Virus record (IMG/VR): IMGVR_UViG_2531839668_000013
Span: 1 to 20,828 of that record
From: a virus
Lineage: Duplodnaviria > Heunggongvirae > Uroviricota > Caudoviricetes
Strand: one strand, 5' to 3'
DNA length: 20,828 nucleotides
Part shown: positions 1 to 17,579 of the stretch, piece by piece
Numbering within the stretch: the first letter of the stretch is position 1
How the letters are laid out: each line of letters opens with the position of its first letter
The notes under the pieces: model-generated
Told to the model about the DNA's origin: nothing
What the model saw: only the letters and a program-made list of their open reading frames with translations
The model's database searches: none
Made by a program: the position numbers and the translations under genes

Positions 1-219
1 TCACATCCACATAATTTGCTGTCCTGACGGCAACGGGTGCGGCCTTACGGCATGGACTTCTCCCGGCTTCACGATGTATCGCTGTACCGACTCATAAGTG
101 ATGAACGTGGCGCTGCAATTCACGTTCTGGCACTGATGATAACGCTCTTTTGTCGTGTCAGTGATATAGCGACTTGTACGCGCATGTGCGGCATGCTGGC
201 ATAAAGGACAATGAAACAT
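1..219 (-). CDS. ogr: Ogr late-gene transcriptional activator (C4 zinc finger), 72 aa
   Basis: Translation from internal Met: MFHCPLCQHAAHARTSRYITDTTKERYHQCQNVNCSATF... matches P2 Ogr family; Cys-x2-Cys...Cys-x4-Cys; start trimmed from the 97-aa ORF (ATG at 217-219). Confidence 0.9.
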   Translation of the reverse strand: MFHCPLCQHAAHARTSRYITDTTKERYHQCQNVNCSATFITYESVQRYIVKPGEVHAVRPHPLPSGQQIMWM

Positions 220-300
220 CGCGAGCACCTCTTCCGGTTTTGTTGATAGTGCCATTTTAGTTAATTTATCTTTATAAAACAAACAGATAAACAAAAGACA

Positions 301-1464
301 TCACTCATAATCTTCTGTTTCGTACTCCACATCAGAAAGCCTGACCTCAAGCTCCAAGGACGTCGTGAAGCCGCTATTATTCAGAAAATGTGTCACCTTA
401 GTGATTGTCCAGTCCTGCTCGTCTATGACGCGCTTAAAGCCTGACACTCTGACCGGTGTTTCCGTGTAAATATCTGCACGACCAGTAGCCAGGATGATGG
501 AGAACTCCGCAACGCCCCGTTGCAGTTTGTCCCACTTCGCCTGAGCAGCACGCATGGCCTGTGCTTTCGTGGCATATACCGTGGTCAGGGCAAAAACGTT
601 GTCAGCCTCACCGGCCATGTATTCACCTTCGCGCGCTTCCGGTACTTTTGGCGCTTTCTTCTGCCTGACCGGTTTCGCTTTCGGGTGCTCCAGTGCGCGC
701 AGGTGTTTCTCTTTCTTTTTGCGTTTCAGTTTTACCTTCTGCTTTTGTGGCTTCGGGTCTTTGGTGTGAAGCCACTTTGCCGTTACGCCGGTATAGGCTC
801 CACGGTCAGCAATCGCAAAATGATGACGGTCACCGTCGCTGCGGGTGATGGTGACCTGCGGGATTTTTTTACCGCTGGCCGTCACCCCCTGCCCCGCTTT
901 GAGAAACAACAGTTTTCCCATTTTTACCGAGACCTCACCGCCGTTGCGTTCTGCAAGACGGGTCAGGAATTTCGCATCAGACTCCTGCGACTGGTCGATG
1001 TGCGGGATTTTAATTCCTGCCAGTGACGGCGCGACACTGGCTTCCAGCCTGTTACGGGAGGCTATCGCCTCAACAATCGCACCGAGCGTGGTGTCATGCC
1101 AGGAGCCTTCCCGGCGGGAATTGAGCGTCCCGCGAAAATCTGCACTCCGGGCGCGGATGGTAACCACATCCGGCGCGCCCCGGTGTTCAACCTCATCAAC
1201 GGTAAATTTCCCTTTGCATACCAGGGCAAAACCTTTCCAGCCGATATACACCGTCAGGACAGCGCCACGAACCGGCAGCCCGACCTGCCCGTCAGCATCG
1301 TTCAGTTCAATATCAAGCTGGTCAGCCTCAAAGCCCCTGTTATCCGTCAGGGTCATACTCATCAGACGGTCGCTGATATTGCCGGTAATATCCCTGCTGT
1401 CGAGCATCAGCATGTAATCCGGCGTCAGCGTACTGCCTGCATCAAATGTCAGCGCATCCAGCAT
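301..1464 (-). CDS. D: Tail protein D (late control gene D), 387 aa
   Basis: Full-length ORF of P2 gpD size, lysine-rich central linker, position between U and ogr; start overlaps U stop (ATGA). Confidence 0.85.
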   Translation of the reverse strand: MLDALTFDAGSTLTPDYMLMLDSRDITGNISDRLMSMTLTDNRGFEADQLDIELNDADGQVGLPVRGAVLTVYIGWKGFALVCKGKFTVDEVEHRGAPDVVTIRARSADFRGTLNSRREGSWHDTTLGAIVEAIASRNRLEASVAPSLAGIKIPHIDQSQESDAKFLTRLAERNGGEVSVKMGKLLFLKAGQGVTASGKKIPQVTITRSDGDRHHFAIADRGAYTGVTAKWLHTKDPKPQKQKVKLKRKKKEKHLRALEHPKAKPVRQKKAPKVPEAREGEYMAGEADNVFALTTVYATKAQAMRAAQAKWDKLQRGVAEFSIILATGRADIYTETPVRVSGFKRVIDEQDWTITKVTHFLNNSGFTTSLELEVRLSDVEYETEDYE

Positions 1465-1943
1465 TATCCCGCCCCCGTCATACCCGTGAATTTAGTCGCC
1501 AGACTGCCAGCCTTACCGATGAGCGATTCCGCCTGTTTACCGATATCGCCATAAAGCGCGGCCAGTGATTCATCAACGCGGGTGAGCGACAGCGTAAAAT
1601 CAATTTTTCGGGGTGTGCCGTCTGCAAAGAAAATACTCCCTGTTTCACTCACCCTGCTGATGACATACATGCCGTAAATCATGCCGGTGCCATCCAGCAA
1701 CGGCCACGCCCGACCTTCCTCTGCCATCAGCCTGAGCGTAGTCATCGTCAGCTTTCCGCCGGTCAGCTCGGGATAAAGCACACCGGCAAGCGTGATGTTT
1801 TCCTCGCCAACACCGAGAAACTGAAAGGCATCCCGTTTACCGATACGGGAATTTGACGGCCAGCGATAATCTGATTCACGCTGCATGGTCTGGTGTGGCA
1901 GCGTCTGGCGCATAAAAACAAACATACCTAACGCTAGCATCAT
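1464..1943 (-). CDS. U: Tail protein U, 159 aa
   Basis: Size and position (between T and D) as in P2; recalled similarity to gpU. Confidence 0.85.
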   Translation of the reverse strand: MMLALGMFVFMRQTLPHQTMQRESDYRWPSNSRIGKRDAFQFLGVGEENITLAGVLYPELTGGKLTMTTLRLMAEEGRAWPLLDGTGMIYGMYVISRVSETGSIFFADGTPRKIDFTLSLTRVDESLAALYGDIGKQAESLIGKAGSLATKFTGMTGAG

Positions 1944-1957
1944 TTTTCGTCACCTCC

Positions 1958-4396
1958 TTAACCGTCATGCATCATGCTGGCACGGGCGCGCGCACGTTTA
2001 TCCCGCTCGTATTTTTCGAGCGCATCCTGTAACTGGCGGTCAAGCTGTGTCCCCGGCGCAGTACTCCCCGTCAGGTTGATGTGATATTCGTTTTTACTCT
2101 GGTCTACATAAGAGCGGCCAGCCGGTGCCGTGACCGGCTGATAGCCTGCATAAGAGCTGGTCGCCGGAATATAACCACCGCTGCCATACGTGGCGGCTTG
2201 AGTTCTGGCGGCGGTCTGGTCAAGTGTGTCTGACTCTTTGTTGATAACACCGAGTTTTTCCAGTACCCAGTCAATACCGCTGCGCAGTTTGTTGAACGCA
2301 TTAAGCGGCAGCATCAGCGCGTCAGCCAGTGCCTGCCCGAACATGACCCCCGTGTCACGGCAACTGTTCAGGGTGTCCTGAGTGGCTTTGACCGGGGCAA
2401 TCAGGTTTTTAAACCACTGCCACGCGGCCTGTAACTTTTCACCCAGCCAGTCAAACACCGGCTTAAGTGGCGTGAACAGTTCCCCCACCGGCGCAAATGC
2501 CACTTTCAGCCCTTCCACCACACCGCCAAAGAATGCGCTGACAGGCTCCCAGTATTTACGGATAAGCAACGCCCCGGCGACAATTGCGGCCACCACGGCC
2601 ACAACAGGCCAGCTAATAGCCCCGATGGCGGTCATAACAGCACTGCCAACCGTCGTGAAGACTGCCCCCATTGCGCCTGCTGCCGCGATGATGACATTGA
2701 TGCCGGTGATAACCGGCCAGGCTACGAGGCCAATGGCACCGATGATGCCAGTCAGCGCCAGCGCGCCACCGGCAATGATGCCGATGGTTGACGCCAGTGA
2801 TTTGTTTTTCTGGATCCAGCCGTCGAGTTTTAACACATACTTTGTGGCCGTCTGCGTGAGCTTACGCAGCGCGCCTTCCTGCTGGTCAAACAGGTCAGTC
2901 CCCACTGCCTCATAAGCGGACTGAAACTCTTTAAAGTCACCGCCTAGGTTGTCCTGCATGATATTTACCAGCTCGGCGGTCTTCCCGTCTGAGGCTTTAA
3001 ACGCAGCGGTCAGTTTGTCCAGCTTTCCGGTTGAGGCGGCAGTCATCAGCACGGCGGCGGCTGAGCTGGCCTCCTCCCCGAAAATAGTTTTCATGTATTC
3101 AGCCTGCTGGGCAGTACCGAGCCGGTTTTTCTCAAAACTGGCCTGCATTTCTTTCAGAATGGTAAATATTGGCCGGGTGTTTCCCTTGCTGTCTGAGGTT
3201 TTCACTCCAAGCTCTTTGAGTGCATCCCATGCTTTTCCCGTCGGTGCCTGCAGGCGGCTTAACACGGCACGGCTTCCCGTCCCCGCCATTGAGCCTGTGA
3301 TTTTTGCATCATGCAGCGCCCCGACCATTGCGGCGGTTTCTTCAATGCTGACACCGGCATTTTTTGCCACAGGTGCGGCATAGATCAGCGCATCGCTCAT
3401 GCCGTCAAAATCGGCGGCGGTTTTGTTCATCGTCATGGAGAGAACATCCCCGATATGAGCGACCTTATCGTTTGAAAGCTGAAAGGCGGATTTCATCCCC
3501 ATCAGCAGGGCGGCGTTTTCTTCCATCGTGCGGCGGTTCGCCAGCGCCATGTTCAGCGTGACCGGCGTTGCCGCCTGAATGGCATCAACATCCCCACCGG
3601 CTTTCGCAATAATAATCTGCGCACCGGCCGCATCATCCGCCGAGGCTGCGGTATTGTCGCCGAGCTGGCGCGCCTGCTTGCGGAGTGCGGTCATTTCGGC
3701 GGAGTCTTTTGCCACTCCTAGCACGGCCTGCAATTCTGAGTTTTTCTGCGCAAACTCATAACCGGGCATCAGCAGCTTAACTCCGGCCATCGTTCCCGCC
3801 GCCGCAATCCCCACACCGGCAGCGCCCACTGAGGCCATATTTCCGGCCAGTTCCTTTCCGGCCTGATAACGCTGTTTTACTGCGTTAAGTTTTGCCTGTT
3901 GCGCACTGACACGCGCCAGTGCGTCGCGCTGACGATTAAGCTGTGCGGTGGTTTCACTGATACGGTTTTTCAGCCCCTGCTCATCATGTGCAAGATTGCG
4001 GGTATTAATTCCCACAGCGGCCAGTTCCCGCTGCTGGCGTTTAACGGAATCCGTCAGGCGGTTATATTTCGCCTGTAAGTCCTCCGCCGCTCGCTTTGCT
4101 GATTCCAGCACTTTCGCCTGAGCACGGGTCGGACGTTCGGTGTTTTTAAACTGTGTGGCAAGGGCTTCGGCCTCCTGCCGTGCCTTTTCAAGTGCATGAC
4201 CAGTCACGGCGAGCTGTGCACTGGTCTTGCGGAATCCCTCAATACGGGATGCGTGACCGTTCAGCTCGCGCAGTGATTTTTGTGTTTCCCGGATATCCCC
4301 CGACAGCGACTTACTCGCTGTGCGGATGGATTTAAACGGGCGGGATGCCTGGTCAACAGCCCTGAGCAATACCTGTAATTTTACATTGTTACTCAT
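1958..4396 (-). CDS. T: Tail tape measure protein T, 812 aa
   Basis: Long Ala/Gly-rich ORF with coiled-coil N-terminal region and hydrophobic glycine-zipper central segment; P2 gpT position and size. Confidence 0.9.
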   Translation of the reverse strand: MSNNVKLQVLLRAVDQASRPFKSIRTASKSLSGDIRETQKSLRELNGHASRIEGFRKTSAQLAVTGHALEKARQEAEALATQFKNTERPTRAQAKVLESAKRAAEDLQAKYNRLTDSVKRQQRELAAVGINTRNLAHDEQGLKNRISETTAQLNRQRDALARVSAQQAKLNAVKQRYQAGKELAGNMASVGAAGVGIAAAGTMAGVKLLMPGYEFAQKNSELQAVLGVAKDSAEMTALRKQARQLGDNTAASADDAAGAQIIIAKAGGDVDAIQAATPVTLNMALANRRTMEENAALLMGMKSAFQLSNDKVAHIGDVLSMTMNKTAADFDGMSDALIYAAPVAKNAGVSIEETAAMVGALHDAKITGSMAGTGSRAVLSRLQAPTGKAWDALKELGVKTSDSKGNTRPIFTILKEMQASFEKNRLGTAQQAEYMKTIFGEEASSAAAVLMTAASTGKLDKLTAAFKASDGKTAELVNIMQDNLGGDFKEFQSAYEAVGTDLFDQQEGALRKLTQTATKYVLKLDGWIQKNKSLASTIGIIAGGALALTGIIGAIGLVAWPVITGINVIIAAAGAMGAVFTTVGSAVMTAIGAISWPVVAVVAAIVAGALLIRKYWEPVSAFFGGVVEGLKVAFAPVGELFTPLKPVFDWLGEKLQAAWQWFKNLIAPVKATQDTLNSCRDTGVMFGQALADALMLPLNAFNKLRSGIDWVLEKLGVINKESDTLDQTAARTQAATYGSGGYIPATSSYAGYQPVTAPAGRSYVDQSKNEYHINLTGSTAPGTQLDRQLQDALEKYERDKRARARASMMHDG

Positions 4397-7614: not shown

Positions 7615-8358
7615 TTAACTGGCTTTCTTTTTCGGGCGTCCACGTTTTGCCGGTGTCACGCTCCGGGTCTTACGCGGGGCGCGGGTGGCCGCTTTGGGTT
7701 GCGGCTCCGGCTTCGGTTTCAGCTCCCGCTCCAGTCGTTCAATCTCTTTTTTGACGCCTGCCTGACAGTCGAGCTGTGTCGCACGTTGCAGGTGAGCCAG
7801 CGCACCGGCGGCATCACCACCGTCACGCAGAAACAGACCGGTGATTTTGTGCAGCTTTGCGCGCACTTCATCAGGCATGTCAGCAGCGGCAGTCAGTTCA
7901 AGGGTCTCCGTCAGCAGGCGGGTATCCACAGACTCACCGGCCGCGTGGGCGCGCATGGCCGCAAGCGCCACCTCCTCGGTGAACATGTACGGCGGGGTGC
8001 GGCGGTGTTTACCCGGCATGGTCAGACCGTATTTCAGGGCATAACGGGCAATCTCCAGCGCACCGGCAATATCGCCGGTATCCAGACGCCACAGCATGAC
8101 CGTCATCAGAATGTCATCCTGTGCGCCTTTGCCCTGCTCCAGCACGCCGTTCACCCACGGCAACCAGAACGGCAGCAGTTCGCGCTTTTTCGCGGCCTTC
8201 AGCTCTTTTGAATAAATCGCTTTCAGTGTGCGCTGGTCTGCGGCGAGCTTAACCAGCATCTGCTCATAGACAGTTGCATGTCGCAGCGGGGCGGCTTCCC
8301 GCTGCGCGGTCATCGCTGCCGAGACCCGCATCATGTGGCGCTGTGCGGGACTCGTCAT
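7615..8358 (-). CDS. M: Terminase endonuclease (small) subunit M, 247 aa
   Basis: P2 gpM size and position; basic C-terminal tail. Confidence 0.85.
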   Translation of the reverse strand: MTSPAQRHMMRVSAAMTAQREAAPLRHATVYEQMLVKLAADQRTLKAIYSKELKAAKKRELLPFWLPWVNGVLEQGKGAQDDILMTVMLWRLDTGDIAGALEIARYALKYGLTMPGKHRRTPPYMFTEEVALAAMRAHAAGESVDTRLLTETLELTAAADMPDEVRAKLHKITGLFLRDGGDAAGALAHLQRATQLDCQAGVKKEIERLERELKPKPEPQPKAATRAPRKTRSVTPAKRGRPKKKAS

Positions 8359-8361
8359 CGG

Positions 8362-9435
8362 TTACGCTCCCGGCTCTGCGGTCGCCTTAGCCGGTGTGGA
8401 GAAATCACCGACCTTAATTTTTTCCACCAGACAACCGGCGGCGTAGTCCTCCACCACGTAATCAATGTTCATTGACTCGTAGTTCTCCACGCGGTCGAGT
8501 TTCGGGTTTTCCTCAATCACGCGGCGATGGCTGTCATCCATGTAGTAGATGGACAGGTTTTCCAGCTTCGTGATGAGCATCGCATCCGCCGGGAAGTACG
8601 GGACGCGTACCGCTGGCAGGTTGCCGATGCGTTTCTGGCTGATGATGACGTCAGCGGCCAGCATTTCGCTGTTGTCCTGCTCCTTGTTGACGATGGGAAA
8701 ATACTTGTCCGCCAGTAGCTGACGCCCCACAATCACCACAAGGTCAGGGTCTTCCTGATACCACGGTTCAATCAGGTTGTTGGTCGCATCCATCACCAGT
8801 GCATCAAGGCTGGCATAATCACCGCCCTTACCCACGCGGATGACCTCAGAGGTGGTGTGCCCTTCCTCGTCAGTGACCTTGCTCATCACGCGCGCCGGGG
8901 CTTCATTGCGGTATTTCTGCAGCCAGCCGACCGCCACATCCTGCAGCATCGGATTGCTGCTGCGGTCAGAGGTTTCGGCACGCTTCACGCCGTTAAAACC
9001 GGCCATGATGAAATCAAGGGACTGACGTTTGATAATGGCGTTACGGACACGGAGCTGGAAATCCTGATAACGCGCCCACAGGTCAAGCGTTTTGTAGCGG
9101 ATATAAAAATCGAAGTTAATCTGGTCGCATTCGTACTTGTTTGACGCCAGCTTCGAGAAGTCCTTCGGCTGACGCTCGGTGCCACCGGCAGTGTCGGTGG
9201 TGCTGGCGATGGAGCCGGTGACACCGATACCAATTTTTTCCCCTTTCATTTCGCTGACCGGCACAATGTTGATGCGGGTCAGAAAGTCAGAAGACTCCTG
9301 CATGGTGTTCATCAGGGTCTGGGTGACCGACGGTTCAACGGTGAATTTTTTCGACACATCACCGGCGTCGATGCCGTTCAGTTCGGCAACACGGGACAGG
9401 TAGGCATTAAATTTAAAGCGGGTTTCCTGGCGCAT
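8362..9435 (-). CDS. N: Major capsid protein N, 357 aa
   Basis: P2 gpN size and position between O and M. Confidence 0.9.
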   Translation of the reverse strand: MRQETRFKFNAYLSRVAELNGIDAGDVSKKFTVEPSVTQTLMNTMQESSDFLTRINIVPVSEMKGEKIGIGVTGSIASTTDTAGGTERQPKDFSKLASNKYECDQINFDFYIRYKTLDLWARYQDFQLRVRNAIIKRQSLDFIMAGFNGVKRAETSDRSSNPMLQDVAVGWLQKYRNEAPARVMSKVTDEEGHTTSEVIRVGKGGDYASLDALVMDATNNLIEPWYQEDPDLVVIVGRQLLADKYFPIVNKEQDNSEMLAADVIISQKRIGNLPAVRVPYFPADAMLITKLENLSIYYMDDSHRRVIEENPKLDRVENYESMNIDYVVEDYAAGCLVEKIKVGDFSTPAKATAEPGA

Positions 9436-10348: not shown

Positions 10349-10521
10349 TGTCAGGAGTCCTGAATAGTGATTAGAGGAGTCACATGTCGGCATCAGTTTC
10401 CCGACGATGCGCATCCTCCGCCATCAGTCCCGGATGGCTTATCACTGACACAACAGCACCTTAGCGAATCGCGGGGCGCGACTCAGTAGCCTTGCCGTGT
10501 ATTCATCACGGCGAGGTATTC

Positions 10522-12294
10522 ATGACCATCACCACAGACACCACTCTTTTACACGACCCGCGTCGTCAGGCGGCGCTGCTGTACTGGCAGGGATTTTCCG
10601 TGCCGCAGATTGCCGCCATGTTGCAGATGAAACGCCCGACGGTGCAGAGCTGGAAACAGCGCGACGGCTGGGACAGCGTTGCCCCCATCAGCCGTGTCGA
10701 AATGAGTCTGGAAGCGCGGCTGACCCAGCTCATTATCAAACCGCAGAAAACCGGCGGTGACTTCAAGGAAATTGACCTGCTCGGACGCCAGATTGAACGA
10801 CTGGCACGGGTCAACCGTTACAGCCAGACCGGCAACGAGGCAGACCTTAATCCGAACGTCGCTAACCGCAACAAAGGCGGGCGGCGCAAACCGAAAAAGA
10901 ATTTTTTCAGTGACGAGGCCATCGAAAAGCTGGAGCAGATTTTCTTTGAGCAGTCTTTCGACTATCAGTTGCACTGGTATCGTGCCGGGCTTGAGCACCG
11001 CATCCGCGATATCCTGAAATCCCGCCAGATTGGCGCAACGTTTTATTTTTCCCGCGAGGCGCTGCTGCGCGCCCTGAAAACCGGCCATAACCAGATTTTT
11101 CTGTCGGCCAGTAAAACGCAGGCGTATGTGTTCCGTGAATACATCATCGCCTTTGCCCGGCTGGTTGACGTTGACCTGACCGGTGACCCGATTGTCCTGG
11201 GCAATAACGGCGCAAAACTGATTTTTCTCGGCACCAACTCCAACACCGCACAGAGCCATAACGGCGACCTGTACGTCGACGAGATTTTCTGGATCCCGAA
11301 TTTTCAGGTACTGCGTAAGGTGGCATCAGGTATGGCCTCACAGAGTCACCTGCGCTCGACCTATTTCTCCACCCCGTCCACGCTGGCGCACGACGCCTAC
11401 CCGTTCTGGTCGGGTGAACTGTTTAACCGGGGACGCGCCAGCGCCGCCGAACGCGTGGAAATCGACGTCAGTCATAACGCTCTTGCCGGTGGTCTTCTCT
11501 GTGCGGACGGCCAGTGGCGGCAGATTGTCACCATTGAGGACGCCCTGAAAGGCGGCTGCACATTGTTCGACATTGAGCAGCTCAAACGCGAAAACAGCGC
11601 CGACGATTTTAAAAACCTGTTCATGTGTGAATTTGTTGACGACAAGGCATCGGTGTTCCCGTTCGAGGAGCTGCAACGCTGCATGGTCGACACGCTGGAA
11701 GAATGGGAAGACTATGCGCCGTTTGCCGCGAATCCGTTCGGCTCCCGCCCGGTATGGATTGGTTACGACCCGTCACACCGTGGCGACAGCGCCGGATGCG
11801 TGGTACTGGCACCTCCGGTGGTGGCCGGTGGCAAATTCAGAATACTTGAGCGTCACCAGTGGAAAGGCATGGACTTTGCCACTCAGGCTGAATCTATCCG
11901 CAAACTCACCGAGAAATACAACGTCGAATACATCGGTATTGATGCCACCGGCCTCGGTGTCGGCGTGTTCCAGCTCGTGCGCTCGTTCTATCCCGCCGCA
12001 CGCGACATCCGCTACACGCCGGAAATGAAAACCGCAATGGTGCTCAAGGCAAAAGACGTTATCCGCCGTGGCTGTCTGGAATATGACGTCAGCGCCACCG
12101 ACATCACCAGCTCGTTTATGGCTATCCGCAAGACCATGACCAGCAGCGGACGCAGCGCCACCTATGAGGCCAGCCGCAGCGAGGAAGCCAGCCACGCAGA
12201 CCTCGCCTGGGCGACCATGCACGCCCTGTTAAATGAGCCACTCACCGCCGGTATCAGCACCCCGCTGACATCCACCATTCTGGAGTTTTACTGA
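10522..12294 (+). CDS. P: Terminase ATPase (large) subunit P, 590 aa
   Basis: MTITTDTTLLHDPRRQAALLYWQGFSVPQIAAM... P2 gpP-like; divergent from O; RBS gagg upstream of the trimmed start. Confidence 0.9.
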   Translation: MTITTDTTLLHDPRRQAALLYWQGFSVPQIAAMLQMKRPTVQSWKQRDGWDSVAPISRVEMSLEARLTQLIIKPQKTGGDFKEIDLLGRQIERLARVNRYSQTGNEADLNPNVANRNKGGRRKPKKNFFSDEAIEKLEQIFFEQSFDYQLHWYRAGLEHRIRDILKSRQIGATFYFSREALLRALKTGHNQIFLSASKTQAYVFREYIIAFARLVDVDLTGDPIVLGNNGAKLIFLGTNSNTAQSHNGDLYVDEIFWIPNFQVLRKVASGMASQSHLRSTYFSTPSTLAHDAYPFWSGELFNRGRASAAERVEIDVSHNALAGGLLCADGQWRQIVTIEDALKGGCTLFDIEQLKRENSADDFKNLFMCEFVDDKASVFPFEELQRCMVDTLEEWEDYAPFAANPFGSRPVWIGYDPSHRGDSAGCVVLAPPVVAGGKFRILERHQWKGMDFATQAESIRKLTEKYNVEYIGIDATGLGVGVFQLVRSFYPAARDIRYTPEMKTAMVLKAKDVIRRGCLEYDVSATDITSSFMAIRKTMTSSGRSATYEASRSEEASHADLAWATMHALLNEPLTAGISTPLTSTILEFY

Positions 12295-13328
12295 TGAGCA
12301 AGAAAAAAGGGAAAACACCGCAACCTGCGGCAAAAAAAATGACTGCCAGCGCCCCGAAAATGGAGGCATTCACCTTTGGCGAGCCGGTGCCGGTACTCGA
12401 CCGCCGTGACATTCTGGATTACGTCGAGTGCATCAGTAACGGCAGATGGTATGAGCCACCGGTCAGCTTTACCGGCCTGGCAAAAAGTCTGCGTGCTGCC
12501 GTGCATCACAGCTCGCCGATTTACGTCAAACGCAATATTCTGGCCTCGACATTTATCCCGCATCCGTGGCTTTCCCAGCAGGATTTCAGCCGCTTTGTGC
12601 TGGATTTTCTGGTGTTCGGTAATGCGTTTCTGGAAAAGCGTTACAGCACCACCGGTAAGGTCATCAGACTGGAAACCTCACCGGCAAAATATACCCGCCG
12701 TGGCGTGCAAGAGGATGTTTACTGGTGGGTGCCGTCCTTCAACGAGCCGACAGCCTTCGCGCCCGGCTCCGTGTTTCACCTGCTGGAGCCGGATATTAAT
12801 CAGGAGCTGTACGGCCTGCCGGAATATCTCAGCGCCCTTAATTCTGCCTGGCTGAATGAATCAGCCACACTGTTCCGCCGCAAGTATTACGAAAACGGCG
12901 CTCATGCCGGATACATCATGTACGTCACTGATGCCGTGCAGGATCGCAACGATATCGAAATGCTCCGCGAAAACATGGTGAAGTCGAAAGGCCGCAACAA
13001 CTTTAAAAATCTGTTTCTCTATGCCCCACAGGGGAAAGCCGACGGCATCAAAATTATCCCGCTCAGTGAAGTGGCAACGAAGGACGATTTTTTTAATATC
13101 AAAAAAGCCAGCGCCGCTGACCTGCTGGACGCGCACCGCATCCCCTTTCAGTTGATGGGCGGCAAGCCGGAGAACGTCGGGTCGCTGGGTGATATTGAGA
13201 AAGTGGCAAAGGTCTTTGTCCGCAATGAGCTTATCCCGTTACAGGACAGGATCCGCGAAATAAACGGCTGGCTCGGTCAGGAGGTCATCCGATTTAAAAA
13301 CTACTCACTGGACACTGACAACGGCTGA
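12294..13328 (+). CDS. Q: Portal (capsid vertex) protein Q, 344 aa
   Basis: P2 gpQ size and position, immediately upstream of cos; start overlaps P stop. Confidence 0.9.
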   Translation: MSKKKGKTPQPAAKKMTASAPKMEAFTFGEPVPVLDRRDILDYVECISNGRWYEPPVSFTGLAKSLRAAVHHSSPIYVKRNILASTFIPHPWLSQQDFSRFVLDFLVFGNAFLEKRYSTTGKVIRLETSPAKYTRRGVQEDVYWWVPSFNEPTAFAPGSVFHLLEPDINQELYGLPEYLSALNSAWLNESATLFRRKYYENGAHAGYIMYVTDAVQDRNDIEMLRENMVKSKGRNNFKNLFLYAPQGKADGIKIIPLSEVATKDDFFNIKKASAADLLDAHRIPFQLMGGKPENVGSLGDIEKVAKVFVRNELIPLQDRIREINGWLGQEVIRFKNYSLDTDNG

Positions 13329-13333
13329 ACATC

Positions 13334-13355
13334 GCCGCCTGCGGGCGGCTTTTTT
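13334..13355 (+). terminator. Intrinsic terminator after Q
   Basis: GCCGCC-tgcg-GGCGGC hairpin followed by TTTTTT. Confidence 0.7.
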
Positions 13356-13497
13356 ACACCCCGTCATCACCCCCTCACACGCTCACCACCGCACAAAACA
13401 CCCCGCAGACACACCAACGCCTCAACGGGCAGACTAAGCGCCGTCACGACGCGCTGAGACGCTGAAAAAATAAAATCCGCACCACCGCCAGCGCGCA

Positions 13498-13516
13498 GTG
13501 CTTTCCCCGCCTCGCC
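13498..13516. other. cos: cos cohesive-end site (P2 19-nt cos)
   Basis: gtgctttccccgcctcgcc is the exact reverse complement of the P2 cohesive end GGCGAGGCGGGGAAAGCAC. Confidence 0.85.
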
Positions 13517-13661
13517 CGCCCGCTTCATGGGGCGGTTTTAATGCAGTTGCAATACCGCTTTTGAGCCACGCCAGTCCTGGCGGACGCACAGCCAGAACAT
13601 GTAACTCCGGCACATGCAAAACCATGCACAGATAAAAACGGGGATATCACAGAAAAAGCAC

Positions 13662-13688
13662 AAAAAAACCGGCATTCATGGTGCCGGT
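13662..13688 (-). terminator. Intrinsic terminator for minus-strand transcripts leaving the cargo island
   Basis: ACCGGCA-ttcatgg-TGCCGGT stem; the minus strand reads the hairpin followed by a T-run. Confidence 0.6.
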
Positions 13689-13827
13689 TCTGATCAATTT
13701 TTATAGTTGTCACTGGCCGCGCAATGTACCAATCACACTGTTGAGGCACGTACTGACAACAATTAGCAGAAAAATCGTTGTCCACGGACTTTCATAAATG
13801 TGAGATAACATCTTGATATAGATCATT

Positions 13828-14022
13828 TTATTTACTCATTCTGATGTGATTTAACAGGTATTTTATAACGACCATAAGCTCATCTTTACTGGCTTGTTCA
13901 ACCATTTTTTCAGTGTAACTGTCCACCTCGCGTGAGCTCAGGTCGTTATTTGAGGCCATTACAGTTAGCCTCTTTGCCCAGTCGGCATAAGGGTCTTTAA
14001 TTGATGAAAGGGAACTATGCAT
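13828..14022 (-). CDS. Hypothetical small protein (65 aa from internal Met; ORF extends to 14109)
   Basis: ORF in AT-rich cargo DNA with a downstream minus-strand terminator; no recognisable family; weak RBS. Confidence 0.4.
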   Translation of the reverse strand: MHSSLSSIKDPYADWAKRLTVMASNNDLSSREVDSYTEKMVEQASKDELMVVIKYLLNHIRMSK

Positions 14023-14452
14023 GTCCAAAAATCTCGAATTATTCAACCAACAGACGGCAGAAATCTTTGCGGTGCTATGGGATAACTTTCCTGTACCACA
14101 AGTCATCACCTACAAAAAATTTAACGCCGCGTTACCTGATGACTACTTTGACCAACTTAACTCACCAGAAATGAAAGCACTGAATCAGTTGCGTAGTGTG
14201 GTTGATGGCACATTCACTTTCTTAAGCGAAAACGGCTATATTCTGTACGGAACAGACCATCAGACCGGTTTTCATGATGTGCGACTGACCGAGAAAGCAC
14301 TCGCGGTGCTCAACAAAAAACCCGAAGCACTTGGCGGTAATGAAACGATGGGAGATAAGATTATCAGCGCAGTGAAGGACGGGACACCTGGTGTTATTGC
14401 CGGTGCAGTAACAAACCTGCTTACCCTCGGTGTCAATCTGATAACTAGCTAA
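14021..14452 (+). CDS. Hypothetical protein, 143 aa, with C-terminal Gly/Ala-rich hydrophobic segment
   Basis: Long ORF in AT-rich DNA; AGGGA-like RBS about 8 nt upstream; followed by terminator-like hairpin; no recognised family. Confidence 0.6.
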   Translation: MSKNLELFNQQTAEIFAVLWDNFPVPQVITYKKFNAALPDDYFDQLNSPEMKALNQLRSVVDGTFTFLSENGYILYGTDHQTGFHDVRLTEKALAVLNKKPEALGGNETMGDKIISAVKDGTPGVIAGAVTNLLTLGVNLITS

Positions 14453-14465
14453 CGCCTTACTTCAC

Positions 14466-14510
14466 CTCCGCCAGCACTGAAAGCAAGTTTCAGCACCGGC
14501 GGAGTTTCTT
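14466..14510 (+). terminator. Terminator-like compound hairpin after the 143-aa gene
   Basis: CTCCGCC...GGCGGAG outer stem with inner CTGAAA/TTTCAG stem, followed by TTTCTT. Confidence 0.5.
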
Positions 14511-14560
14511 AAATTTGTTCCATCTCAAACATTGAGATATCTTTTTCATTTCACCCGGAA

Positions 14561-14998
14561 TTACTTAATTACATTAAAGGTGAATCCCTTTACCCCTCGA
14601 CCAAAAACAGCCCCTCCATCCGATATATAAACAGAATTATCACAAAGACATATATCACCAAATGAATACTTTCCAAGCAAGTCTTTATAAATAGAAATAA
14701 GCTCTTGAGCCACATAAGGAATCATTAATTTTGATAACCCTTGTCCCCGCTCACTTTGCTTAACCCAAACATAATCTATTTGATATATTACAGCGTCCTC
14801 TGTAGATTCAATGATGAATGAACAAAAACCTATTTTCTCATTATCGTCATTCACCACTGCCACCACACTCACAAAATTACTGCAAAGTGCCTGATTATAC
14901 TTCTCCTCTGCTACGCTACAACAATCTTCAAAATCCCCGACTCCCAAAGAGATATCGGTGATAACATTCCCTTTCTTATCAATGCAAACTCTTACCAT
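14561..14998 (-). CDS. GNAT-family N-acetyltransferase-like protein, 145 aa
   Basis: Motif VWVKQSERGQGLSKLM resembles the GNAT acetyl-CoA binding motif (R-x-x-G-x-G) preceded by beta-strand-like segments; AGGT RBS; 45 bp downstream of A on the same strand. Confidence 0.55.
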   Translation of the reverse strand: MVRVCIDKKGNVITDISLGVGDFEDCCSVAEEKYNQALCSNFVSVVAVVNDDNEKIGFCSFIIESTEDAVIYQIDYVWVKQSERGQGLSKLMIPYVAQELISIYKDLLGKYSFGDICLCDNSVYISDGGAVFGRGVKGFTFNVIK

Positions 14999-15043
14999 AT
15001 ATAATTACCTGGCGTTATCTTGACACATTATTTATCAATAAGT

Positions 15044-17314
15044 TTAATCCACAAACCCCGGCCACTCATCAGTGACCGGATACGTGAATTTTTTCCCGCC
15101 ATAATTTACGGTTGCCCCACGCGCCAGCGCCTCAAGCTCCCATCGCTGCGGCCTGATACCGTTCTGAGCAAGGTCAACGCGGATACGGGTGATTTGCATT
15201 CGTTCCGACCGGGTCAGTCTGGCCGATGGCGCAATTTCATGTGGTTTTAACGGACTTCCGTTTCTTTGCTGACGGTTTGGCGTTCGCAGGTCGTGTTTTA
15301 ATGCGCCCCTGAGCGCCCTCACGACCTCCGGTTCATTCCATTCGATAACACCGTCATCAACCAGATTAAGCACTGCTGCGGCGTGCTCAGAAGGCGTGGG
15401 AGCCGGTAACGAAGTATCACCACCAGTGAGCTTTCCACAGTTATTGACAGGACTCCGAGGCGCGGCGATGCCGCTTTTTAAAGTCAAAGGCTCAACGACC
15501 GGCACTTTCGGAACAATGCGCCAGTCCATCGTTCTGGTGATATGAATATGACGCGCGCCGAGATGCGGCGCGTAAATGCCGACCACTCTCTCGACTTCTT
15601 CCTCGTACTCGTTAACTTCATCCGACGGACTACGGGCAACCCTGACAGTCTGACAATCGCGCGGAACATTTGCCCCACCCTGCGCGCTGATATACAACGC
15701 AAAATCACCACTGTCTGCGGCAGCGCGTGCAGCCTCGACGCGTTCGTCAAACTCATCAGCAATGCTGACGCCGCGAGGCAATTTGCGTAGTTCACGGTAA
15801 GCCCCCATTGTCGGCAGGCCAACCGTTTTAAATTGCGGAATGCGCCACGTTGACGCCCATGCGGTAACAGCCGCGGCAGTGTCTTTCAGCGGCCTGCCGG
15901 TATCGTTATCGAGCTGACCATCCAGTGCATAGCCATCGATGTTTTTTGAGATGTATTTCGCGATATATCCCGCAGCACCGCCCCGGTTAAGGTGTTTTGC
16001 CTGAAAACGGTTTCGCGCGGCTCCTCTTTCGTCACCATCCTCTTTGAGCGCATAGCGACGCATGATTTCGATAATCTGGTTACGCTGGCGTGGATTACAA
16101 AAAAGCATCATATGCCAGTGCGGCGTTCCGTCGTGGTGTGGCTCGACGACTCGCAAACCGTAGACCTGTAAATCATTATCCTTGAATGCCGTGCGCATCA
16201 GGCTCCAGATGCGGCAGAGATAACGCTGCGCATCCTTTGGATTAAATGCCTCATCATTCCAGCCGTGATTTAGCTGGACGGTTTTACTTTCGCCTTTTCC
16301 GACCTGACGTGTCGGGTGATACTTTGACGGCGCGGTCAGAGTGATAAACATCCCCACATCACCCTCTGCGGCGGCGTAACGCTCAATACCGGCGATGGTG
16401 TTCATCAGCTCCATCCGGCGAATTTCAGGATTAGAAATACTGCCCATCACCTTACTGATAAGGTCGATGCGCTCGCCGGTTTCCCTGTTTTCGAGGTCAC
16501 ACGATTTAAGAAATTCCAGATTTGCCTGGCGGCGTGCACGCACATCACGAATGGCATGTTTACTGGCATAAGGAGAACGGTCTTTATTGACCTCCCCGAC
16601 AGCAATCAGTAACGCCTCATGCCAGCGCATACGCTGGCCTTTAAGCTGATGAGTCCACCACTCATCGTTAAACAGACGGGCAATGGCAGAATATGCCTGC
16701 CTCGTGGTCATCTGTCCTTTACGGTATTTTTTCCAGTAGAGAGGGGAAATATTGAAAGCACGTGCAGCGCCAGCAACATGACCATACAGATGCGCCTGCG
16801 CCTCATCTGTAAACAGCGATTCTTTCTCGCCATGTGCATCAACCCATGCATCGCAGAGTTCCTCATACATCATGAAAAGCTGCGATGAGATACGGGCGGC
16901 AAACTTTTTCAGCTCCTTGTCATTCATCCCCGGCAGACGCGCATAATGGTCACGCTCTGCCAGAAACAGCAACGACGCGTCGGTGTTCATTTCATGGCGC
17001 TGATTCACGCGCTCAATACGCGGCCATAAACGGCGCTGAAAAGTGGATGTGAGGAAATAAAACCCGTGCACCGGGCTTTTATTGCGCCGGATGTAGTCAT
17101 AGCGTGAAGTAAACAGCGAGCGCAAAAAGTAAGGCAGGCGATTAATCGTGGATAAAACACCTTGCACCTGACGCATCTCGTCACGTGTAAGGGGTCTTTC
17201 GCGCCCGACGGCCTCGCGTGGCGCGTTCCATGCATAAGCACCGGTAAACGTCTCACCGGTGCCTGCGGCAAATGCTGACGGAGGGACAAAACGCCCGGAG
17301 GCTTTAACGGCCAT
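15044..17314 (-). CDS. A: Replication initiation protein A (rolling-circle nickase), about 756 aa
   Basis: P2 gpA-like throughout (PHWHMMLF, YIAKYISK active-site region); start trimmed to MAVKASGRF. Confidence 0.9.
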   Translation of the reverse strand: MAVKASGRFVPPSAFAAGTGETFTGAYAWNAPREAVGRERPLTRDEMRQVQGVLSTINRLPYFLRSLFTSRYDYIRRNKSPVHGFYFLTSTFQRRLWPRIERVNQRHEMNTDASLLFLAERDHYARLPGMNDKELKKFAARISSQLFMMYEELCDAWVDAHGEKESLFTDEAQAHLYGHVAGAARAFNISPLYWKKYRKGQMTTRQAYSAIARLFNDEWWTHQLKGQRMRWHEALLIAVGEVNKDRSPYASKHAIRDVRARRQANLEFLKSCDLENRETGERIDLISKVMGSISNPEIRRMELMNTIAGIERYAAAEGDVGMFITLTAPSKYHPTRQVGKGESKTVQLNHGWNDEAFNPKDAQRYLCRIWSLMRTAFKDNDLQVYGLRVVEPHHDGTPHWHMMLFCNPRQRNQIIEIMRRYALKEDGDERGAARNRFQAKHLNRGGAAGYIAKYISKNIDGYALDGQLDNDTGRPLKDTAAAVTAWASTWRIPQFKTVGLPTMGAYRELRKLPRGVSIADEFDERVEAARAAADSGDFALYISAQGGANVPRDCQTVRVARSPSDEVNEYEEEVERVVGIYAPHLGARHIHITRTMDWRIVPKVPVVEPLTLKSGIAAPRSPVNNCGKLTGGDTSLPAPTPSEHAAAVLNLVDDGVIEWNEPEVVRALRGALKHDLRTPNRQQRNGSPLKPHEIAPSARLTRSERMQITRIRVDLAQNGIRPQRWELEALARGATVNYGGKKFTYPVTDEWPGFVD

Positions 17315-17579
17315 ATGAGCCAAAAGCCTCTGAACAACGCTTGCTGAGTTGCTCAACCTGCGCGTTTAAATCAGCAAAAGACTTTGCGCTTCCGGTCAGA
17401 ATATCGTGATGCATCAGGCCGGAAACAAGCTGGCTTAATTTCGGGTAATAACCAACCACCGCCAGCCATTCCTGACCGGCGTTTTTACCGCTTTCAGCTC
17501 TCTTTTTCTCGTGGAGAATAAACTGAAAGCTGTCACTGGTAACGACATAACGTTCGCCAATTTCAATACGAATACTCAT
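17304..17579 (-). CDS. Small early-operon protein, P2 orf83-position, 91 aa
   Basis: Position immediately upstream of A; unknown function. Confidence 0.6.
   Translation of the reverse strand: MSIRIEIGERYVVTSDSFQFILHEKKRAESGKNAGQEWLAVVGYYPKLSQLVSGLMHHDILTGSAKSFADLNAQVEQLSKRCSEAFGSYGR

Follow-up and report, generated by a model that had tools for sequence, protein, structure and literature searches.

One example of a small, enzyme-like protein carried as accessory cargo by a P2-like prophage is found in IMG/VR virus record IMGVR_UViG_2531839668_000013, of which positions 1 to 20,828 were analysed (20,828 nucleotides (nt), hereafter the window), and where an open reading frame (ORF) on the minus strand at 14561-14998 lies directly behind the replication gene gpA. 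On its predicted fold, the 145-amino-acid (aa) product is a highly divergent, minimal GNAT-fold protein resembling acyl-CoA N-acyltransferases, and its gene is exchangeable cargo in the gpA-gpQ hotspot of the prophage, close to the cohesive-end (cos) site. The protein does not belong to the TacT/AtaT clade of GNAT toxins. A GNAT annotation in RefSeq and the hotspot itself were already known; what is new is modest, namely a tiny and atypical GNAT subfamily that is mostly confined to the gpA-gpQ slot of P2-like phages. As to function, we favour, with a probability of roughly 40%, a stand-alone acyl-CoA-dependent acetyltransferase that would be made together with the early genes and would modify a host or competitor protein, in a role of counter-defence or host modification.

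The gene itself is supported by the ORF list, RefSeq identity, Pfam, alignment and a structural model. It starts with an ATG at 14998-14996, and its product is RefSeq WP_000252694.1 ('GNAT family N-acetyltransferase'), encoded by an identical gene in E. coli O157:H16 98-3133, where a P2-like prophage is 100% identical to the window over 13300-15100. The start codon is considered sound because the N-terminus of the protein aligns with the N-termini of its homologues, and a weak Shine-Dalgarno sequence, AGG at 15010-15008, lies 9 nt upstream of the ATG. Since homologues at 25-40% identity retain conserved motifs, the ORF is regarded as more than a chance reading frame. The gpA gene ends on the same strand with a TAA at 15044-15046, leaving a spacer of exactly 45 nt (14999-15043, minus strand), just as a preliminary description of this DNA had stated. 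That description had also claimed that no antitoxin-sized ORF adjoins the gene, which proved correct: the ORF list together with Pfam and NCBIfam searches revealed no such ORF on the same strand beside it, and neither of the two small neighbour genes matches RHH or DUF1778. No publication mentioning WP_000252694 was found.

According to Rousset et al. (2022; PMC9122126), who counted 1,650 arrangements of it, the gpA-gpQ hotspot of P2-like phages serves as a reservoir for anti-phage systems as well as for further accessory genes, and the same hotspot has been treated by Vassallo et al. (PMC9519451). Table S5A of the former study includes this GNAT protein, labelled 'hypothetical' and nothing more (PMC9122126). 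In the window, genes for the terminase (10492-12294, plus strand) and the portal protein gpQ (12294-13328, plus strand) are followed by an exact 19-nt P2 cos sequence at 13498-13516 (minus strand), which represents the right end of the linear phage genome and lies about 1 kb from the GNAT gene. On the opposite side, the gpA replication endonuclease (15044-17314 in RefSeq, minus strand) is the product of the gene that closes the conserved part of the P2-type early operon, and the genes upstream of it specify Cox, B, DUF2732, DUF5405 and TraR/DksA proteins. The cargo region of the hotspot corresponds to a low-GC island at 13600-15050, in which GC content is 33-44% in most 200-bp windows and 48-51% around 14200-14500, as against about 55% in the phage backbone.

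Relatives carry other cargo in this slot, including a retron in W13-16, DinI in phage Midge, and orf91, tin and old in P2. The GNAT gene is like the P2-type cargo as a whole (orf91, tin, old, retrons and Rst systems) in its slot, its low GC content and its replacement by other cargo in close relatives, and it differs from the defence cargo found there in having no match to known defence models. Comparison with loci L002, L008, L010 and L029 places the left junction of the hotspot inside gpA, directly after the conserved ...(Y)P..(D/N)EWPGF codons and within about 15044-15060, and the last 0-8 gpA residues and the stop codon vary among phages with different cargo. This context, which is absent from the preliminary description, is by itself enough to explain why a solitary low-GC accessory gene should occur here.

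The GNAT fold of the product is shown by profile matches together with a predicted structure. The protein matches Pfam Acetyltransf_1 at 22.0 bits against a gathering cutoff of 20.7 (E 2e-4, a borderline match) and Acetyltransf_7 at 26 against a cutoff of 27, with residues 44-99 alone covered in both cases, while PHROG acetyltransferase families match it at E 3e-7 and Acetyltransf_1 is matched by 6 of the 10 family members described below. When the protein was compared with PDB chains by phmmer no match was returned, a profile of the family gave weak GNAT matches alone (E at least 0.015), and searches of PADLOC, NCBIfam and PDB sequences with the protein provided no informative assignment. An AlphaFold2 model from the single sequence was unusable (predicted local distance difference test score (pLDDT) 41) and was replaced by a model from a 14-sequence family alignment, which reached a pLDDT of 94.6 and a predicted template modelling score (pTM) of 0.87. 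Its elements comprise beta 3-6, alpha 28-39, beta 44-49, beta 55-66, beta 69-79, alpha 88-108, beta 117-120 and alpha 127-144. Together they make up the GNAT core minus the C-terminal beta6 and beta7 strands. The protein has in common with the superfamily the beta1-alpha-beta2-beta3-beta4-alpha3-beta5-alpha4 topology and an R-G-x-G-L-S loop before alpha3, in addition to the borderline Pfam match. Among the Foldseek matches to the PDB that were listed, all those with E of 1e-3 or below are GNATs (best E 3e-5, template modelling (TM) scores 0.4-0.5), the closest solved structures being RimI-like 7n1l, GNA1 6yug and VF_1542 3jvn, and nearly everything returned by a structure search of BFVD is a generic viral GNAT. 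The earlier designation of the protein as GNAT-like is thus borne out, by an Acetyltransf_1 score that exceeds the gathering threshold, if narrowly, and by structural matches of the model to GNATs only.

Confirmation of motifs A and B by alignment had been proposed at the outset. With the register set by eye, the R84-G-Q-G87-L-S89 loop falls on motif A and S126-x-x-G129-x-x-F132 on motif B. Relative to the motif A consensus Q/R-x-x-G-x-G/A, the window protein carries serine instead of the final G/A, while R84 is invariant in the family, as are C59, S60, I74, S122 and G129. Position 87 is lysine in seven of the 14 aligned members, arginine in two and serine in one, so that 10 of 14 are non-glycine there, and the window protein is the best motif A match within the family. 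The GNAT toxins have a conserved catalytic tyrosine (Y144 in AtaT, for instance); across the motif B region, the aligned family members have no tyrosine in common, position 133 being glycine in 10 of 14 members (register against the toxins by eye).

Acyl transfer by the GNAT-fold protein is something that we infer, and these same features bear on an alternative in which the protein would be a non-catalytic or decaying GNAT fold, either a binding or scaffold protein without acetyl transfer or functionless cargo. The replacement of the motif A glycine by lysine in half of the members, the lack of a conserved general-acid tyrosine, the absence of the C-terminal strands from the model and the moderate similarity to solved GNAT structures all point in that direction. 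We nevertheless consider this alternative improbable, given that the window protein retains the best motif A of its family and that, in every locus read or matched, the frame is intact and the protein or DNA is 99.8-100% identical to that of the window, with the exact protein indexed in 1342 blocks of the assembly collection. Residues that are invariant across relatives only 20-40% identical, together with a very confidently predicted fold, also argue that the family is under selection.

The family to which the protein belongs is small. A word-indexed homologue search returned its own cluster alone, and an exhaustive HMMER search was needed, which recovered 10 proteins at E of 1e-3 or below among 1.84 billion representative proteins; a profile search added four further clusters. 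Six of the 10 representatives (the window protein, P0002, P0003, P0004, P0006 and P0007) are encoded by diverged P2-like phages in their gpA-gpQ slot; four of these genes, that of the window included, are co-oriented with gpA and two are antisense to it. The three closest, P0002, P0003 and P0004 (37-40% identity; loci L008, L009 and L010), lie in P2-like prophages as the last gene before a cos-like site, whereas P0006 and P0007 (about 30% identity; L012-L015 and L018) occupy the same slot of Klebsiella-type P2-like elements on the portal and cos side, and in L014 the homologue is the sole gene in the slot. Because the accompanying gpA proteins are 38-100% identical to that of the window, the association of the family with P2-like phages spans deep divergence. 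A search for related loci with the four closest members found none in GTDB representative genomes and three in IMG/VR, all of them P2-like. Two further representatives are in mobile or defence-type contexts: P0005 (L011) is beside an AcrVA2-like gene and a PRTase retron, and P0009 (L016) is in a mobile element with RadC, DUF932 and YqaJ genes. In two Vibrio species, P0008 and P0012 (L004 and L006) are each encoded by a single chromosomal gene flanked by an MscS channel gene and OsmC, in surroundings that are syntenic between the two. Members carried by phages and elements are acidic proteins with isoelectric points of 4.5-5.2, while those of Vibrio are neutral or basic.

The Vibrio orthologues, with their housekeeping neighbourhood, are among the observations that would suit a small-molecule acetyltransferase carried as a 'moron', which would benefit the host by detoxifying an antibiotic, a polyamine or an amino-acid analogue and would have no part in phage conflict. 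Near structural and profile neighbours of the protein include aminoglycoside, diamine/polyamine, glucosamine-6-P and phosphinothricin acetyltransferases, and the hotspot is known to carry non-defence cargo too (PMC9122126). Against this stand the concentration of six of the 10 representatives in one phage slot and of two more in mobile or defence-type settings, as well as the fact that no substrate-specific motif was identified, and a purely metabolic role is judged rather unlikely. The acidity of the phage and element members as opposed to those of Vibrio, the neighbours of P0005 and the mobile setting of P0009 suggest a flavour of conflict.

It had been put forward in the preliminary description that the gene might be an orphan toxin of the TacT/AtaT/KacT type. 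According to this interpretation, which would extend to ItaT, the protein would acetylate aminoacyl-tRNA and stop translation without an antitoxin, and its small size and lack of a partner gene would be in keeping with that. In known GNAT toxins, an adjacent DUF1778/RHH (or DUF4065) antitoxin gene is the defining association of the clade (PMC9177977). No DUF1778/RHH or DUF4065 neighbour is present here or at any homologue locus, and nine homologue contexts contained no conserved neighbour of any kind. An all-against-all comparison of the ORFs (35 aa or longer) lying up to 700 bp from ten family members, made in search of a conserved partner, likewise produced no matches beyond the gpA and portal backbone genes and cos DNA. 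Sequence and profile searches of PDB chains yielded no toxin, in structure the protein matches TacT/AtaT no better than it does generic GNATs, and in Vibrio the orthologues are stable, single-copy and chromosomal. The acidic character of the protein (net charge about -7.6) would also suit tRNA binding poorly. The window protein therefore differs from TacT, AtaT, KacT and ItaT with their DUF1778 antitoxins in having no antitoxin and no clade-specific sequence similarity, in being acidic and in standing alone in every context examined. The toxin proposal is thus unsupported and very improbable, and the idea of an orphan tRNA-acetylating toxin can be dropped on present evidence, whichever function holds.

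When the gene is expressed bears directly on the remaining explanations. In P2, orf91 occupies the same position and orientation directly behind A, overlapping its end, while tin and old lie on the opposite strand, driven by a promoter of their own with transcript starts mapped near cos. The matching place of orf91 in P2 makes it plausible that, in this lineage, the GNAT gene is co-transcribed with the early operon. The claim that the gene is placed for such co-transcription is supported for the window by its orientation, the 45-nt gap, the lack of any called promoter or terminator in a consensus scan of that spacer and the fixed junction, the same orientation relative to gpA being seen in the three closest homologues; it does not hold as a property of the family, given that the Klebsiella-type homologues are antisense. 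The negative promoter scan is not used as evidence, because the scan was equally negative upstream of the L014 and L009 homologues, which must have promoters of their own. A 10-bp GC-rich hairpin in the 3' end of gpA (15057-15080, minus strand), followed by GUUUGU, was considered as a terminator of the early operon and rejected: it is A coding sequence also in P2, where orf91 follows, and the scan calls no terminator there. This hairpin could be a weak attenuator at most.

On the favoured explanation, the orf91-like position would make read-through from Pe probable, so that the protein would appear with the replication proteins on infection or derepression; as a rule, phages of the P2 type are not induced by the SOS response. 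It would then probably acetylate a host or competitor protein, and less likely a small molecule, to the benefit of the phage. Such counter-defence or host modification would resemble the action of AcrVA5, a small GNAT anti-CRISPR that acetylates Cas12a and thereby disables a defence protein (PMC9114340, PMC11021501). The likeness lies in a small, single-gene GNAT on a mobile element, which makes AcrVA5 a possible functional analogue; the two differ in that AcrVA5 is neither a sequence match nor a top structural match to the window protein, and the comparison is one of analogy only. E. coli is not known to have Cas12a. Several points weigh against the counter-defence explanation: the promoter scan is uninformative on expression of the gene, the two homologue groups that are antisense to gpA have the orientation of old and tin and so fit lysogen-expressed genes, and the hotspot is best known for defence systems and not for counter-defence (PMC9122126). 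A bolder proposal, which we hold only tentatively, would see in this family a dedicated weapon, encoded by a single gene, that P2-like phages would have retained in their cos-proximal slot in spite of deep divergence, and whose atypical active site (invariant Cys59-Ser60 on beta3, without a catalytic tyrosine or C-terminal strands) would acetylate and disable a specific host immune protein or a protein of a competing phage.

The antisense homologues also suggest a lysogenic-conversion or anti-phage gene, in which a single-gene GNAT, produced in the lysogen under a weak promoter of its own, would act in defence or superinfection exclusion by acetylating an incoming phage component or a host factor needed by the invader. 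The gpA-gpQ slot is a proven anti-phage reservoir, where many uncharacterised genes protect when cloned (PMC9122126, PMC9519451, PMC13586616), and P0006 and P0007 are read from the cos side like P2 old and tin, with the L014 homologue alone in its slot. In addition, the integron cassette Brc113, a single GNAT gene, has been reported to confer phage resistance (bioRxiv 10.1101/2024.07.02.601719). By description, Brc113/BrcP and the window gene are alike in being a single GNAT-domain gene carried as mobile cargo; the anti-phage phenotype is that of the integron cassettes, and their mobile platform differs from that of the window. However, neither the protein nor its 13 relatives have a meaningful PADLOC match, the only hits being PDC-M23A for the window protein (E 0.025) and PDC-M12A for one of the 13 relatives (E 0.0033), neither of which recurs in the family. 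Moreover, the 45-nt gap holds no recognisable promoter, and the gene sits at the orf91 position of a repressed early operon. Anti-phage defence is for these reasons a possible but doubtful explanation.

The distribution of the identical gene bears on the same question in both directions. It is carried by just 11 of 5426 complete E. coli genomes, all at 99.8% identity or above, while its flanks are matched by 2164, a rarity that counts against a defence gene. The gpA-GNAT junction is identical in 10 of 10 loci read, whose prophages occupy three different integration sites. In most of the carriers, on the other hand, two additional genes form a cassette between cos and the portal gene; they encode a 433-aa AAA_15/AAA_21 ATPase and a 145-aa protein (8608-10355 in L019; also in L020-L024 and L026-L028), and the presence of this candidate defence pair across cos would favour an anti-phage setting. 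In PADLOC, the cassette is matched best by PDC-M29A/B and AriA. The cassette is absent from the window between 13329 and 13497, and cargo has therefore been swapped on both sides of cos. The 145-aa protein of the cassette was considered as a paralogue of the GNAT protein and rejected, the two being unrelated on comparison. In L027, an IS3-family element (HTH_Tnp_1 and rve; 7861-9023) lies directly downstream of the GNAT gene, and the neighbouring gene orf143, described below, is disrupted while the GNAT gene is intact.

The gpA-gpQ slot of P2 is among the richest sources of new phage-conflict genes of E. coli, and of the candidates that it offers, an enzyme encoded by one gene is the simplest to put to the test. 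If the protein does modify an immune protein or a protein of an invading phage, acetylation would join the conflict functions borne by P2-like phages and a new GNAT subfamily would be defined; if it is a dedicated weapon of the kind proposed above, it would represent a new enzymatic mechanism of counter-defence or exclusion in enterobacteria. If it has no such role, it is one more uncharacterised accessory gene. The gene is a reasonable candidate for defence or counter-defence screens, and finding it here is no surprise.

The remainder of the cargo region in the window consists of two small genes, orf64 (phrog_2454; 13828-14022, minus strand) and orf143 (phrog_2266; 14021-14452, plus strand), which are divergent from one another, with start codons that overlap by 2 nt (14021/14022), and of which orf143 is convergent with the GNAT gene. 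The pair is kept in many P2-like phages whatever the cargo, as seen in W13-16 and Midge, and because orf143 is found without the GNAT gene in such phages it is not regarded as a partner of the GNAT protein. The possibility that orf143 and orf64 form a cryptic antitoxin or immunity pair was likewise rejected, as they are present without a GNAT gene in W13-16 and Midge, and no other homologue locus contains them. A resemblance of orf143 to T7 gp5.5/5.7 by HHpred is mentioned in the Midge record. Between orf143 and the GNAT gene lies a 17-bp hairpin (14466-14504) with a U-tract on the plus strand, which probably terminates orf143 and may end the GNAT transcript as well.

A few further observations concern the annotation of gpA and the loci of homologues. 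For gpA, the mechanical ORF list places the start at a TTG at 17356 (770 aa), compared with 17314 in RefSeq (756 aa), overlapping the upstream DUF5405 gene by 11 nt. In L010 (6500-7100), the GNAT homologue and cos-like site are followed by a portal fragment and then by chromosomal genes, the locus being a truncated P2-like remnant that retains gpA and the GNAT homologue. In L008 (6950-11757), three more cargo genes are located between the cos-like site and the portal gene, encoding proteins of 408 aa and 364 aa (no Pfam match) and a 649-aa DUF4365-TPR protein, and these could be an uncharacterised defence cassette.
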